A stretch of DNA of 48,366 bases from Chlamydiota bacterium (GCA_016866575.1 VGMA01000001.1:1-48366), one strand, 5' to 3'. Shown: positions 8,667 through 12,327, counted from the stretch's first letter. Notes: generated by a model from the sequence alone, not told the origin. Program-made: numbers and translations.

Positions 8667-9509
8667 TTAATCCTTATTATTTATTTTGTAGTTTAAAAAT
8701 ATTCTAGCTTTTTTATTCTCTTCCTTGATAGTCTTTTTTTCTTTAGCGGGATACTTGAACTGCAACAAATCAAAGACGTTTTCATCGAAGTGCGCATGAT
8801 TCAATAAATCTTTTAGCTCTGGTTCTTTCAAGATAGCCTGCTCGTCATCTTTAGTAAAATAATTTGTCTCTTCTAATTCTAAAATAGAATCTGTTAGATC
8901 TTTTCCGAACAGGGCTTGAAGAAGTGGTATAGAGGCATTTTTAAAACAAACAGGTTTTCTCTCTGATTTTTGAGAAATTGTTATATAATCCTCTAAGGAG
9001 ATATTGCTTTTTAACATCTTGTAGTACACTTCTTTCAAATGATCATCTTTTGGATAAAGATCGGTAAGAGCCTTCGGTTTCTCCGATTTTCCTTTTTCTA
9101 TCAAACTATCGACAAGTAGTTGCACTTCTTCTTCATCAAAAAAGCCTTTATCTTTGTATAAAGTCACTAAAAAATTTTCTAAGAGATTTTTTAGTTTCAG
9201 GTCAGGCTCTTTTTGATGATCAAATAAACTTGTGATGTTCAATTTGCTACTTTCTAAAATTTCCCCGTTAGCTCTTGAAGAAACATACACAGTCCGTTCT
9301 TTTTTTTCGCCGCTTGGATCTTTTGAAGAATTTTTCAAATGAGGCTTTAAGCGCTCTTGCTCTAATTTATTCATGAGAGCTCTTTTGGCCTGCATGTAGC
9401 AAGAATTTCGATAAGAGAGATACTCTGTATGTGTAGCAGATTGAAAAAACGTAAGAGAGCTTATAGAAAGTAGGCAAATAAATAAAAGCACAAGGGGCAA
9501 GGCATTCAC
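8667..9509 (-). CDS. Hypothetical protein with an N-terminal hydrophobic anchor, possibly a GspK-like minor pseudopilin. Uses a GTG start.
   Basis: N-terminus NALPLVLLFICLLSISSLTFF is hydrophobic and lacks Glu5, as in GspK. Two degenerate HhH-like segments are present (SKLNITSLF... and CFKNASIPLLQALFGKDLTDSILE). The GTG start overlaps the upstream stop as GTGA at 9506-9509. Confidence 0.45.
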   Translation of the reverse strand: MNALPLVLLFICLLSISSLTFFQSATHTEYLSYRNSCYMQAKRALMNKLEQERLKPHLKNSSKDPSGEKKERTVYVSSRANGEILESSKLNITSLFDHQKEPDLKLKNLLENFLVTLYKDKGFFDEEEVQLLVDSLIEKGKSEKPKALTDLYPKDDHLKEVYYKMLKSNISLEDYITISQKSERKPVCFKNASIPLLQALFGKDLTDSILELEETNYFTKDDEQAILKEPELKDLLNHAHFDENVFDLLQFKYPAKEKKTIKEENKKARIFLNYKINNKD

Positions 9510-9997
9510 AGCAAAAAGCCCTGTTGGTCAGTTTTTGGAAAGAAAAAAGGGTAAGTGACACGGTCGATGATCATCACCATCGCTCTTTCATCGCGCTCAA
9601 AAGTGACTTCTAAGATATCGCTTAGGAGAATTTCTTTACGTGAGCGATCTTTTTTTTTGCTAAAGCTTTCAAGTATTAGATCATAGCGATCATCTAGGTA
9701 TAGATGCGCTTCAATCATACCAGCAAATTCTCCTTCAGGGTCAATTTGGTTGTCAAAAGAGAACCTAATGCTTCCATCTTCTTGCTGTTTAAATGATTTG
9801 GTATCGACATACAAAAAAACATTTGAAAGACGTTGCAGCAAAGAGCTGCGCTGCAATACATCTTTTCGAATCGCTTCTGCTTTTGTCTGTAAAATTGTAG
9901 AGTTTCTAAAAGAAGAGAACACTGAAGCAAGAACTACGCTAAATAGACCTAAAGAGATCATCACTTCAGTAAGAGTTAGAGCATGGAGTTTTCTCAT
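9506..9997 (-). CDS. Pseudopilin-like protein (GspJ-like position) with a class III (prepilin-type) signal. The ORF is open up to 10033.
   Basis: From the internal Met (ATG at 9997-9995) the sequence is MRKLHA|LTLTEVMISLGLFSVVLASVF. This gives a short basic leader, Glu at +5 and a hydrophobic helix. The -1 residue is Ala rather than the canonical Gly. Confidence 0.55.
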   Translation of the reverse strand: MRKLHALTLTEVMISLGLFSVVLASVFSSFRNSTILQTKAEAIRKDVLQRSSLLQRLSNVFLYVDTKSFKQQEDGSIRFSFDNQIDPEGEFAGMIEAHLYLDDRYDLILESFSKKKDRSRKEILLSDILEVTFERDERAMVMIIDRVTYPFFFPKTDQQGFLL

Positions 9998-10029
9998 ATT
10001 TTGAGTATACTCCATGTCTAAATACCACT

Positions 10030-11886
10030 TCAAGCTCGGCTTTTATGCGGTTTTGCAATCCAAATGAGCAGTAGAGCAAGAAGAATGAAGAATATAGGGC
10101 TATATGCCTGATCGATGATGCTTTCCTTGGTAGTGGAGATTGCTCCCATCACAGTCATTAAAGCTATGAGTACTCCTGTGCAAGCATCTCCAGCAACAAT
10201 ACCTGAAGCAGCTAAGAGCCCTTTTTCATCTTGAAGATTGTCTTTGCCAATCATTTTTTGAACAATCCAGTGGGTAATTCCTCCTGCCATCGTAGCTGTG
10301 CTGATCGAAAGAGGTAGATAAAGCCCAAGGGCAAAAGGAAGAACAGAAACTCCTAGCATCATCAAGATTAGACCTATTACAGCTCCAATCAAAACAAAAA
10401 GTACAGGAAGCTTACCCATGAGAACGCCCTCAGTGATCATTGCCATCAAGGTAGCTTGAGGAGCTGGAAGGTTTGCTGTTCCAAATCCATAGGCTTTATT
10501 GAGAAGCACGAGCACACCGCCAATACAGATAGATGGCAAAATGAGCCCGATGATTTCAGCAATCTGCTGTTTTTTAGGAGTTGCTCCAAGCAAAAATCCT
10601 GTTTTAAGATCTTGCGATGTTGTAGAAGCAAGGCAAATAGCAACAAACGAAGTAGCTCCCATGGTGATAGCGGATATCAAATAGAATCTATCGGTCCAGC
10701 CAAGAGAGTAAAATAAGAAAGTCGTGATCAAAAGTGTAGTCAATACCATCCCTGAAGATGGATTTGAAGAGCTTCCCACAATCCCTACAGTGATCGAAGT
10801 CACAGCAGAAAAAAAGTATCCTAAAATAGCAAGTAGAACGATCGTAAAGAGATTCATGTTCATCTCAGGAAGAAGCCACAAAAGGGCAATTACAGAAAAT
10901 GTTCCGACAATGAGCCATTTTAAAGAAATGTCTCTATCAATTCTTGGAAGCTTATCGCCTTCTTGGAACCCTGCAAAGAGTTCTTTAAATCCCACATGGA
11001 TCGTCTTTATTAAAACCGGTATGATTTTAATCAGACTGAAAATACCACCTACAGCCATTGTCCCTGCGCCAATGTAGCGTATATAATTTTTCCAGATCGC
11101 TTCTGCGCTCATATTCGCAATCGGTATATTCGCAGGAAAAACGACCATATTGTTATGGCCAACCAACTTGATTAAAGGGACAAGAACCCACCAGCCAAAT
11201 AGGCCGCCGGCAAGAACGATCGCTGATATTCTTGCGCCGATCATATAGCCTACGCCAAGAAGAGCAGGAGATCCTTCAATGCTTAGCTCAGTTCCTTGAA
11301 AAGAAGGAAATACGTAGCGAGTTTGCTCTTCCCAAAACTTGAATACACCAGAACAGAGTTTGTAAATGGATCCTATAGCAATACCAACAAGTGCATACAT
11401 TGCACCCTCTTGTCCGCGATCGCCCGCTTTCAAGATCTCTGCGCATGCTGTTCCTTCCGGAAAGGGAAGAACGTGGTGTTCTTTGACAATGATGTAGCGT
11501 CTTAGAGGAATCATGAACAAAATTCCAAGGATCCCGCCTAGAAACGAAAGAACTGCTACTTGGTAATTAGAGGGATTTGCTCCAAAAAGATAAAGCGCAG
11601 GTATTGTAAAAATTACCCCGGCTGCTAACCCTTCGCCTACTGAAGCAATGGTTTGGACAATATTGTTTTCTAAAATAGAAACATTTTTAAAAAATAGGCG
11701 TAAAATAGCCATCGATAGTACAGCGGCAGGGATGGACGCAGAAACTGTCATACCCACTTTCAAGCCTAAATAGGTGTTTCCGATGCAAAAAATAAGACCT
11801 AAAATACAGCCTAGCACCAAAGCGCGGGTAGTGAGTTCTTTAGGAGATTCATTTGCAGAAACATAAGGTGTAAATTCTTTTTTCAT
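10030..11886 (-). CDS. OPT-family oligopeptide transporter (bacterial OPT clade), polytopic membrane protein.
   Basis: 618 aa with about 16 hydrophobic segments. The N-terminus KELTTRALVLGCILGLIFCIGNTYLGLKVGMTVSASIPAAVLSMAILR is characteristic of the OPT family. Confidence 0.88.
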   Translation of the reverse strand: MKKEFTPYVSANESPKELTTRALVLGCILGLIFCIGNTYLGLKVGMTVSASIPAAVLSMAILRLFFKNVSILENNIVQTIASVGEGLAAGVIFTIPALYLFGANPSNYQVAVLSFLGGILGILFMIPLRRYIIVKEHHVLPFPEGTACAEILKAGDRGQEGAMYALVGIAIGSIYKLCSGVFKFWEEQTRYVFPSFQGTELSIEGSPALLGVGYMIGARISAIVLAGGLFGWWVLVPLIKLVGHNNMVVFPANIPIANMSAEAIWKNYIRYIGAGTMAVGGIFSLIKIIPVLIKTIHVGFKELFAGFQEGDKLPRIDRDISLKWLIVGTFSVIALLWLLPEMNMNLFTIVLLAILGYFFSAVTSITVGIVGSSSNPSSGMVLTTLLITTFLFYSLGWTDRFYLISAITMGATSFVAICLASTTSQDLKTGFLLGATPKKQQIAEIIGLILPSICIGGVLVLLNKAYGFGTANLPAPQATLMAMITEGVLMGKLPVLFVLIGAVIGLILMMLGVSVLPFALGLYLPLSISTATMAGGITHWIVQKMIGKDNLQDEKGLLAASGIVAGDACTGVLIALMTVMGAISTTKESIIDQAYSPIFFILLALLLIWIAKPHKSRA

Positions 11887-11889
11887 TCT

Positions 11890-12327
11890 TTAACCATGCT
11901 TGGTTGAAGGTTTTTTTTCAATAAAAAGATCGTAAAAAGAGGGGCTTAGTTTTTCGTCCACCTCGATTTCGATCCGAAGCATTGCATGATTTTCTGGCTT
12001 TTTAGGTTTTTTGATAAAGTAGCTTACTTTAGCGTTGCAAAGAGTTGTTTTTTCTTTTCCTAATACGATAGTGTAAGGGCCAAAAATGCTCTGTTTGGCT
12101 TGTTTTTTGGATAAAGGCAATGAATCGAATGTTTCATGTTCAGCAAGATAGATGAGAAAATCTCTGTAAGCCAGATCGCTGATTCTTTCGAGTTCTATTT
12201 TTCTTAGTGACTCGATTTGTTTGACATACTGTCTAAAAGGAGCTGAGCAAATCGGAATGAGGCAAAGCGCTAAAAGGGCAATAGCGATCAATATTTCGAT
12301 CAAAACAAAAGGGCGCTGTTTCTTCAT
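11890..12327 (-). CDS. Pseudopilin-like protein (GspI/H-like position) with a class III signal.
   Basis: MKKQRP|FVLIEILIAIALLALCLIPI has a basic leader, Glu at +5 and a hydrophobic helix, but Pro at -1 instead of Gly. It is 145 aa. Its stop lies 3 nt from the OPT start. Confidence 0.55.
   Translation of the reverse strand: MKKQRPFVLIEILIAIALLALCLIPICSAPFRQYVKQIESLRKIELERISDLAYRDFLIYLAEHETFDSLPLSKKQAKQSIFGPYTIVLGKEKTTLCNAKVSYFIKKPKKPENHAMLRIEIEVDEKLSPSFYDLFIEKKPSTKHG

Follow-up and report, generated by a model that had tools for sequence, protein, structure and literature searches.

Four closely set genes from a lake-water chlamydia, all on the minus strand of a 48,366-nucleotide stretch of DNA (the window), probably represent a set of chlamydial type II secretion system (T2SS) minor pseudopilins, namely an I-like protein, a GspJ homologue and a GspK-like cap, with an OPT oligopeptide transporter gene as an old insert. 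A first-pass annotation, made from the sequence alone, had read the locus as an I/J/K-like module with non-canonical leaders and an OPT gene inside, and this main reading is supported and extended by profile searches, predicted folds and gene order. GspI/J/K-like tip genes are now seen in environmental chlamydiae, whose T2SS had been reported to be without such tip proteins.

Organization of the locus

The tight packing of the four co-oriented genes was confirmed by their ORF coordinates. In the list below, a slash marks the boundary between positions −1 and +1.

12327-11890, minus strand: I-like gene, ORF of 145 aa, start MKKQRP/FVLIEILIAIALLAL
11886-10030, minus strand: OPT gene, 618 aa, between the I-like and J-like genes
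9506..9997, minus strand: J-like gene, 163 aa from ATG 9997, start MRKLHA/LTLTEVMISLGLF
8667..9509, minus strand: K-like gene, 280 aa, GTG start at 9509
12328..12523: divergent intergenic region before the I-like gene, where the operon promoter is presumed to lie
12524..13459, plus strand: 311-aa gene, function unassigned, divergent from the I-like gene

The I-like and OPT genes are separated by 3 nt, and the J stop and K start overlap in the sequence GTGA. For the J-like gene, TTG 10033 opens the longest ORF, with a 4-nt overlap on the OPT stop, and ATG 10015 is the start in the public annotation (169 aa); ATG 9997, which is favoured when relatives are aligned, puts 32 nt between OPT and J. 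The GTG 9509 start of the K-like gene is backed by the N-terminus of its product, which is kept as MNxLP in the 12 related loci read, with the single exception of MNALG in L024; in the public annotation the protein (P0007) has 242 aa and loses this N-terminal helix. From its spacing, the OPT gene is most likely co-transcribed with the pseudopilin genes. The region upstream of the I-like gene holds one candidate sigma-70-like site (TTGAAC-17-TAAAAT; minus strand, 12400-12372), and a promoter and terminator scan as a whole gave no signal above chance.

The I-J-K order and the stop/start overlaps are kept in 16 lineages. As noted in the first-pass annotation, the consecutive order and the protein sizes (145, 163 and 280 aa, versus 125, 195 and 327 aa in E. 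coli K-12) resemble those of the GspI-GspJ-GspK and XcpV-XcpW-XcpX tip complexes (PDB 3ci0, 5vtm, 6utu). The chlamydial set differs from these in that I is split from J by OPT, GspH is absent, and the genes gspG, L, M and O are missing from its immediate surroundings. Among the 46 ORFs of at least 120 aa in the 48-kb window, a Pfam survey found, besides the genes described here, no pilin, secretion ATPase, platform, secretin or prepilin peptidase, which bears out the observation that no major pseudopilin, ATPase, platform or secretin gene is nearby. Nor were T2SS core genes, including gspDEFG and GspO, found within ±10 kb at 29 related loci, so that the module can be called stand-alone at the scale of the window and of these flanks.

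An orthologue of the 311-aa gene occupies the same position in 14 related loci (L001, L004, L007-L009, L014-L017, L020-L022, L025 and L027), with 32-55% identity to the window's copy for the six that were aligned. Pfam and NCBIfam searches with the window's copy gave no match. It is a constant neighbour, which does not imply membership of the module.

Assignment of the J-like and K-like proteins

The 163-aa J-like protein scored above the gathering threshold for Pfam DUF1494 (PF07379; 29.9 bits, threshold 24.3) and just below the cut-off for N_methyl (20.9 bits, cut-off 21.2), whilst Pfam T2SSJ (PF11612) was not reached by this protein alone. The J family comprises 860 representatives, with profile statistics obtained on 74 aligned members, and here T2SSJ was matched by 21 of the 74 (best E among the relatives 2.9e-7), N_methyl by 35 and DUF1494 by 52. 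An hhalign comparison of the family profile with E. coli GspJ gave a full-length match over 168 columns (93.8%, E 1.7e-7), the best among E. coli GspG-K, and the globular part of the profile (positions 119-171) matched EpsJ, XcpW and GspJ in the PDB. By these profile matches the J-like protein is a divergent GspJ, in line with its original annotation. Some members of the family have been named 'PulJ' by JGI.

The 280-aa K-like protein has no leader and has Pro rather than Glu at position 5 (MNALP), a conserved feature of the related loci that agrees with the hydrophobic, Glu5-less N-terminus described previously. Lack of Glu at +5 is peculiar to GspK among the pseudopilins (Ile in the E. coli protein), and the K-like protein is likewise the only member of the trio to lack it. 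Its sequence gave no Pfam or NCBIfam match at E ≤ 1, including T2SSK (PF03934 / PF21687), and an hhalign probability of 0.3% against E. coli GspK; 11 homologues were found. An AF2 model (pLDDT 82.5, pTM 0.70) contains a helical insertion domain, and a Foldseek search with it returned XcpX (5vtm_X, 6utu_C/I/F) and GspK (3ci0_K) as PDB ranks 1-5. Probabilities for these five ran from 1.00 to 0.69 and the match to 5vtm_X had an E of 1.4e-3; TM-scores were low (0.31-0.41) and E-values only 1e-3 to 1e-1. The GspK-like call is thus supported by the predicted fold and the missing Glu5, but not by any sequence-profile match. The two degenerate HhH-like segments that had been pointed out found loose support, in the helical domain of the model and in a single weak hhalign hit, local in extent, to the helix-hairpin region of GspK.

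The I-like protein

The 145-aa I-like protein has a basic leader of six residues, with Pro at −1, and a hydrophobic helix; position +1 is Phe and position +5 is Glu. Its profile matches were weak and N-terminal: N_methyl (PF07963; 15.3 bits, cut-off 21.2), GspI (TIGR01707; 16.8 bits, cut-off 44.35) and ComGE. Among E. coli GspG-K, hhalign ranked GspI best (57-61%), over the N-terminal 43-44 columns only. The AF2 model (pLDDT 85.4) has pilin topology, with a helix at residues 6-64 and four strands, and a Foldseek search with it returned no pilin. An orthologue precedes either J and K or OPT in at least 15 loci. A pilin-type protein is therefore supported by Glu5 and the modelled topology, as the GspI-like call implied, whilst its assignment to GspI specifically is tentative. 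In comparison with the known tip complexes, then, J is recognized by profile, K by its predicted fold and lack of Glu5, and Glu5 is present in I and J; the chlamydial K and I are unrecognizable by sequence.

Absence of glycine at −1

The I-like and J-like proteins of the window and of all related loci share a short basic leader, a hydrophobic +1 position, Glu5 and then a run of about 20 hydrophobic residues. These features uphold the class III prepilin-type signal (N_methyl; PF07963 / TIGR02532) that had been assigned to both proteins, except that the Gly at −1 belonging to that class is missing in each, being replaced by Pro in the I-like protein and by Ala in the J-like protein (which has Leu at +1). 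This absence, correctly noted from the start, extends beyond this genome to the whole J family, where Gly occupies −1 in only two of 135 representatives; the commonest residues are P (44), S (23), A (22), N (9), F (9) and T (8). Canonical prepilin-peptidase cleavage of I and J is therefore doubtful. Since Gly(−1) is almost never present in I and J, and K lacks a leader altogether, its first residue being the 'mature' one, it is probable that all three are used uncleaved or are cut by a non-classical peptidase. Both features set the chlamydial trio apart from the GspI-J-K tip.

In studied systems, prepilins that are left uncleaved are not assembled, which leaves room for a non-assembling role for the trio. 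The three could then be pilin-derived, signal-anchored periplasmic proteins outside any fibre, serving for example as an envelope scaffold or sensor, as the near lack of Gly(−1) and the absence of a linked prepilin peptidase or core gene (48-kb window, 29 related loci) would suggest. However, I and J strictly retain the residues that subunits need in order to pack (Glu5 and Phe/Leu at +1), the extreme N-terminus of K is conserved, families across the phylum maintain the order I-J-K and a single K-type member without Glu5, and the presumed Chlamydiaceae orthologues are embedded in a gsp operon. We consider a non-fibre role unlikely and prefer a role as minor pseudopilins. A similar question about pseudopilin maturation arises for the reduced, T2SS-type miT2SS of some protists, in which no GspO homologue was found; the miT2SS GspG keeps canonical processing features (PMC8134430), in contrast to the chlamydial I and J with their loss of Gly(−1).

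Relation to the C. trachomatis gsp cluster

PepP and then MutL lie downstream of I-J-K in L007, L010, L011, L014 and L015, and in L011 these are joined by an SseC-family translocator and a CesT chaperone. Since these PepP-MutL and CopB/chaperone neighbours match the C. trachomatis region CT565-CT579, the trio would be equivalent to CT568-CT566, beside gspG. The DUF1494 match of the J-like protein (CT567 is, we assume, a member of DUF1494), the protein sizes and the synteny all argue that this correspondence is probably correct. CT565-CT568 encode proteins of 147, 330, 174 and 151 aa with function unassigned, and are followed by CT569 (gspG), CT570 (gspF), CT572 (gspD), CT574 (pepP), CT575 (mutL), CT576 (scc2) and CT578 (copB) (PMC1403754, PMC3703283, PMC6686042, PMC7482065). 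Thus CT568-CT567-CT566, with 151, 174 and 330 aa, have the same order as I-J-K (PMC1403754), and had been labelled, with CT565, as 'Chlamydiaceae-specific' unknowns adjoining gspG; pepP, mutL and the type III secretion (T3SS) translocator/chaperone neighbours are shared (PMC6686042, PMC7482065). In the Chlamydiaceae the trio genes directly follow gspD-E-F-G and there is no OPT gene, whereas the environmental lineages have the trio at a site apart from the core genes.

We propose that the N-terminal helices anchor the three proteins in the inner membrane and that their periplasmic domains may assemble into a tip complex from which the pseudopilus is primed. The pseudopilus would be built on a machine of GspE, GspF, GspG and GspD whose genes lie elsewhere in the genome. 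The Chlamydiaceae counterparts, CT568-CT567-CT566, are located directly after gspG.

Alternatively, the trio could cap a fibre that serves DNA uptake (competence) or resembles a type IV pilus, and that works with the same or another GspE/F/D-like machine to deliver DNA to ComEC. The chlamydial 'T2SS' has been described as chimaeric rather than a bona fide T2SS (PMC6668835, PMC6711533), and Chlamydia is naturally competent via ComEC (CT339), with the pilus component unknown (PMC6686042). The competence minor pilins ComGD-ComGG are likewise small, Glu5-bearing pilin-like proteins encoded in one operon, and weak ComGE matches were obtained (NF041013, E 0.0024 and 0.017). These matches, however, cover the generic N-terminal helix only and are far below the cut-off, whilst the best full-length profile and fold matches, and those of the globular parts, are to GspJ and GspK/XcpX rather than to ComG or PilVWX. 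In addition, the presumed Chlamydiaceae orthologues lie in the gspDEFG cluster, where the phenotype of an ATPase mutant is of the secretion type (PMC13158948). A DNA-uptake or type IV pilus-like tip is accordingly judged improbable, and a T2SS tip is favoured.

Conservation of the OPT gene

The product of the gene between I and J is a full-length, high-scoring member of the bacterial OPT transporters (TIGR00733, 377.8 bits against a cut-off of 182.5; Pfam PF03169, residues 17-577, E 3.6e-97, 326.9 bits), and its position, reported in the first-pass annotation, is both real and evolutionarily conserved. The synteny comparison across Chlamydiae that had been proposed there showed OPT to be the gene immediately preceding J in about nine divergent lineages, eight of which also have the I-like gene upstream. 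The position is the same as in the window in L005, L009, L012, L014, L020, L021 and L024, with the I-like gene upstream of OPT except in L012, where the contig starts inside OPT, and in L024, where an inversion has split off I and OPT-J-K stays one unit. Seven lineages keep I-J-K with neither an OPT gene nor an OPT remnant there. To our knowledge, no other OPT gene lies inside a pseudopilin operon.

The OPT tree and the J+K tree are congruent at supported nodes, and pairwise identities are correlated (r = 0.88). This co-divergence implies a single old insertion between I and J with several later losses, and the gene order with OPT is, on the same comparison, old and common to many environmental chlamydiae. 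A recent chance insertion or horizontally acquired cassette confined to this genome would fit the higher G+C content of OPT (0.417, versus 0.333 for J and K) and the absence of OPT from L001 and L004, the nearest I-like relatives first examined. It is contradicted by the conserved gene order and the tree congruence; moreover, OPT-less L001 and OPT-bearing L009 form a sister pair (100% support), and the G+C of OPT falls inside the window range (0.33-0.44). We regard this explanation as highly improbable.

The persistence of OPT upstream of J, its linkage to J-K through the L024 inversion, its co-divergence with both and the very short gaps (3 nt and at most 32 nt) would also be expected if it were a working partner of the module, either as the peptide-uptake half of a protease-secretion operon or as a platform replacing GspC/L/M, given that the chlamydial T2SS is without recognizable GspL and GspM (PMC6668835). 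Against this, the seven lineages without OPT, and its absence from the Chlamydiaceae cluster, indicate that it is dispensable for the module, and the protein scores as a standard TIGR00733 equivalog; gene order alone does not separate co-regulation from physical partnership. A working partnership is rather unlikely. Under the preferred reading of OPT as an old insert, it would be an ordinary oligopeptide importer whose gene was inserted between I and J ahead of the divergence of several chlamydial lineages. It would then have passed on vertically together with J and K, with several losses, and would be co-regulated with the pseudopilins while forming no structural part of the machine.

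Architecture of the four-gene cluster

The first-pass annotation had proposed four co-oriented, tightly packed genes, with an oligopeptide transporter lying between the first two of three minor-pseudopilin-like genes, and the ORF coordinates, a 3-nt gap and stop/start overlaps bore this out. The genes are listed below in 5' to 3' order, a slash marking the position of the canonical prepilin peptidase site.

12327-11890, minus strand: I-like (GspI-like) ORF, 145 aa, N-terminus MKKQRP/FVLIEILIAIALLAL
11886-10030, minus strand: OPT-family transporter gene (OPT), 618 aa, 3 nt after the I-like gene
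From ATG 9997, a start set by family alignment, minus strand: J-like (GspJ-like) ORF, 163 aa, N-terminus MRKLHA/LTLTEVMISLGLF
GTG 9509 to 8667, minus strand: K-like (GspK-like) ORF, 280 aa, with a GTGA overlap with the J stop

The longest form of the J-like ORF starts at TTG 10033 and overlaps the OPT stop. Assignment of the 618-aa protein to the OPT family is secure on its profile scores (PF03169, E 3.6e-97; TIGR00733, 377.8 bits, cut-off 182.5), confirming the identity of the gene between I and J. Given the 3-nt and ≤32-nt gaps and the absence of terminator-like sites on the minus strand at the junctions, we infer that OPT would be co-transcribed with the pseudopilin genes; a promoter/terminator scan gave no signal above chance. 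As had also been claimed, core secretion genes are not nearby: a Pfam scan of the 46 ORFs of at least 120 aa in the 48-kb window returned no pilin, secretion ATPase, platform, secretin or prepilin-peptidase family besides the cluster.

The public gene calls differ from these starts. That of the K-like gene begins 38 codons too late, giving 242 aa and losing the N-terminal helix, and that of the J-like gene uses an upstream ATG, giving 169 aa. Among sequencing runs that contain this stretch, the DNA runs are lake-water metagenomes, and no RNA run turned up.

The J-like protein and DUF1494

When the J-like protein was checked for a prepilin motif by profile, DUF1494 scored above the Pfam cut-off (29.9 against 24.3 bits), but the N-terminal methylation motif (N_methyl) fell just short (20.9 against 21.2 bits). 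Word-based homologue searches gave almost no matches for J or I, and an exhaustive profile search was used for J. With a profile of three close homologues, 860 proteins were obtained at E<=1e-3 from 1.84 billion representatives. Among the best 74 of the 860, which were aligned, 52 matched DUF1494, 35 matched N_methyl and 21 matched Pfam T2SSJ; none of the 74 resembled a Pfam seed member, and their strongest DUF1494 match had E 1.7e-11.

Aligned by hhalign to E. coli K-12 GspJ, the J-family profile matched over 168 columns (93.8% probability, E 1.7e-7). GspJ was its top match among GspG, H, I, J and K, the other four matching in the N-terminal helix only. Against PDB sequences, EpsJ, XcpW or GspJ made up five of the eight best matches, in the globular region. 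Thus the GspJ-like identity suggested for the 163-aa protein holds and, judged by these profile, hhalign and PDB matches, DUF1494 is a divergent GspJ family. The assignment is not wholly new, since JGI's automated annotation already applies the names 'PulJ' or 'PilE' to a few of these proteins.

The I-like and K-like proteins

The GspI-like claim stood in part. Matches of the I-like protein to GspI, ComGE and N_methyl were weak and N-terminal, and hhalign preferred GspI over 43-44 N-terminal columns only. The AlphaFold2 model (pLDDT 85.4) has a predicted pilin layout, a 59-residue helix followed by four strands; however, a fold search with it returned no pilin, and the I profile gave chance-level matches only against PDB sequences. 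We regard I as a pilin-type protein occupying the I position, with GspI as a candidate identity.

For the K-like protein, the claimed likeness to GspK was found in the predicted fold and in the absence of Glu at position +5 (Glu5), but not in the sequence. Pfam and NCBIfam gave no match, similarity to E. coli GspK was absent at the sequence level, and the K profile found only chance-level matches among PDB sequences. The AlphaFold2 model, built from an 11-sequence alignment, was a confident prediction (pLDDT 82.5, pTM 0.70) of a helix at residues 4-57, a helical domain and terminal strands. In a Foldseek search of 350,542 PDB chains, its best five matches were to XcpX (5vtm_X, E 1.4e-3; 6utu_C, I and F) and GspK (3ci0_K), with TM-scores of 0.31-0.41, which are low, so that the likeness is fold-level support, short of proof. 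Across the 12 related loci where it could be read, the K N-terminus was MNxLP (MNALG in one, L024), and both leader and Glu5 were absent. GspK is the sole pseudopilin without Glu5 in canonical systems, and the chlamydial K-like protein lacks it likewise.

Leaders and processing

Both leaders had been noted to lack Gly at position -1, and the wider families agree. In 135 J-family representatives, chosen by a recognisable motif that includes Glu5, with Phe or Leu at +1, the -1 residue was Pro in 44, Ser in 23, Ala in 22, Asn in 9, Phe in 9, Thr in 8 and Gly in just 2. I-like orthologues have Pro, Ser, Thr or Phe, while Glu5 was present in every I and J orthologue read among the related loci. Classical prepilin peptidases need Gly at this position and tolerate Ala or Ser poorly. 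Taken with a K that has no leader, the near-absence of Gly(-1) argues that the three proteins either are not cleaved or are cut by a different enzyme. In a rival and less likely reading, the three proteins derive from pilins but stay anchored and build no fibre.

Gene order and history of OPT

The neighbouring Metallophos gene served as an anchor in finding related loci (numbered with L below); its best match in the genome collection was 54% identical, and the genome of the window itself did not turn up. Named relatives in that collection are MAGs labelled Rhabdochlamydia, Parachlamydiaceae, Waddliaceae, Simkaniaceae, Chlamydiia and Chlamydiae. The synteny comparison recommended at first pass showed the I-(OPT)-J-K order recurring over the 29 loci: Lpd-LipA ... 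GlgC, Metallophos, a conserved and divergently transcribed gene of ~311 aa, I, (OPT), J and K, followed by histidine kinase and guanylate cyclase genes and/or PepP and MutL.

Position of OPT in the window and related loci
Between I and J: window, L009, L005/L006, L014, L020, L021
Immediately 5' of J: L012, where the contig begins within OPT
4.8 kb downstream of I: L016, where the contig ends within OPT
In an inverted OPT-J-K unit separated from I: L024
Absent: L001, L004, L007, L008, L011, L015, L029

No OPT remnant was detected by tblastn in any of the loci without OPT. One of these, L001, is sister to the OPT-bearing L009 with 100% support in a concatenated tree, and its I-J gap contains 1.1 kb of other sequence. 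A recent, lineage-specific insertion, considered from L001 and L004, was rejected because OPT shares its position in distant lineages and the trees agree: the OPT and J+K trees are congruent at the nodes that have support, (window, L009) and (L021, L024). The identities of lineage pairs in OPT and in J+K are correlated (r = 0.88), at 53-73% for OPT and 17-49% for J and K. The simplest history on these sequence comparisons would be that OPT was inserted once, long ago, between I and J, descended vertically and was lost several times. The data exclude chance insertion of OPT; a less likely rival to co-regulation alone is that OPT is a true functional partner of the pseudopilin module.

Three loci carry further features. 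The I-J gap of L001 (5409-6509), the OPT site in its sister L009, holds short transposase-fragment-like ORFs, for example MKQATSHYVGIDV..., without a Pfam match. In L005, a pentapeptide-repeat protein gene (PF00805, E 1.3e-18) and a 98-aa ORF lie between OPT and J at 8886-9480. L016 (CAVSUE010000002.1) belongs to a MAG labelled 'uncultured Verrucomicrobiae', probably wrongly, since it has the chlamydial order GlgC, Metallophos, 311-aa gene, I ... OPT and its Metallophos is the nearest to the window's (54%).

Relation to type II secretion and C. trachomatis

Homologues of E. coli GspC, D, E, F, G, L, M and O were not found in any of the 29 related loci (phmmer, E<=0.01), so that separation of the trio from the core genes is the rule outside Chlamydiaceae. 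In C. trachomatis, CT565-CT568 form a cluster of 147, 330, 174 and 151 aa, of unknown function (PMC1403754), adjoining CT569 gspG and CT570 gspF (PMC3703283); farther along are CT572 gspD, CT574 pepP and CT575 mutL (PMC6686042), then CT576 scc2 and CT578 copB (PMC7482065). The environmental loci have PepP and MutL after I-J-K, and the Simkaniaceae-like L011 additionally encodes a translocator of the SseC family and a CesT chaperone. By sizes, order and the DUF1494 match, I fits CT568, J fits CT567 and K fits CT566. DUF1494 was presumably built from CT567-type proteins. CT566-CT568 lie beside gspG, whereas the environmental trio lies away from core genes; the link of the trio to type II secretion (T2SS) is positional and literature-derived. 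Alternatively, though less probably, the trio would serve competence or a type IV pilus.

Proposed function

We consider it probable that the trio forms a divergent tip module of the GspI/J/K type for a T2SS-type machine whose genes lie elsewhere in the genome, that its N-termini are non-canonical and probably uncleaved, and that OPT is a true peptide importer sharing transcript and regulation with the module. According to the open literature searched, the chlamydial T2SS apparently lacks minor pilins and GspL/M (PMC6668835), and pilus homologues are reported as not found in C. trachomatis (PMC6686042). The window locus and its relatives would fill the minor-pilin gap with a conserved I/J/K-type module across environmental Chlamydiota, giving a likely function to DUF1494 and, by position, to CT566-CT568. 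What is new is an I-J-K module that is phylum-wide and lies apart from the core genes, the combination of a leaderless K with lost Gly(-1), which raises the question of how these pseudopilins mature and assemble, and an ancient OPT gene within a pseudopilin operon. The long-conserved placement of the importer suggests that peptide uptake and secretion are co-regulated, a nutrition-secretion link in bacteria dependent on host-derived amino acids.

A bolder joint reading, which we think unlikely, is of a Chlamydiota pseudopilus made from subunits never cut by prepilin peptidase, with OPT as functional partner. I and J would keep their short basic leaders, Pro, Ser or Ala replacing Gly(-1), translation of the K cap would itself yield a 'mature' N-terminus, and OPT would import peptides freed by secreted proteases, making the unit a feeding operon. 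To our knowledge the prepilin peptidase step is otherwise universal in bacterial type IV filament machines; if true, this would be one without it.

Other genes in the window

Two paralogous minus-strand ORFs without a family match, at 6000-7334 (444 aa) and 7597-8607 (336 aa), separate the K-like gene from the histidine kinase gene. They have an N-terminal helical region in common, their C-terminal hydrophobic tails are nearly identical (IAKIAAWA.IVFSAGIGYAFLL.YTYCFE), and they may be lineage-specific tail-anchored or Inc-like membrane proteins; nothing occupies their site in L001, and in L009 a different ORF, of 657 aa, does. Divergent from the I-like gene, 12524-13459 (plus strand) encodes a soluble helical protein of 311 aa and unknown function. 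It is kept at the same position in 14 related loci, with 32-55% identity to the window's protein in the six aligned, and may work with the pseudopilin module as a partner so far overlooked.

At 30190-31776 (plus strand), a 528-aa protein combines a RAP domain (E 8e-21), a domain found mainly in eukaryotes, with a REase_MTES_1575-like region. A quinol-oxidase-type operon at 33099-38146 (COX2, COX1, COX3 and COX4_pro, then a UbiA-family haem O synthase-like gene) points to aerobic respiration in this lake-water chlamydia.
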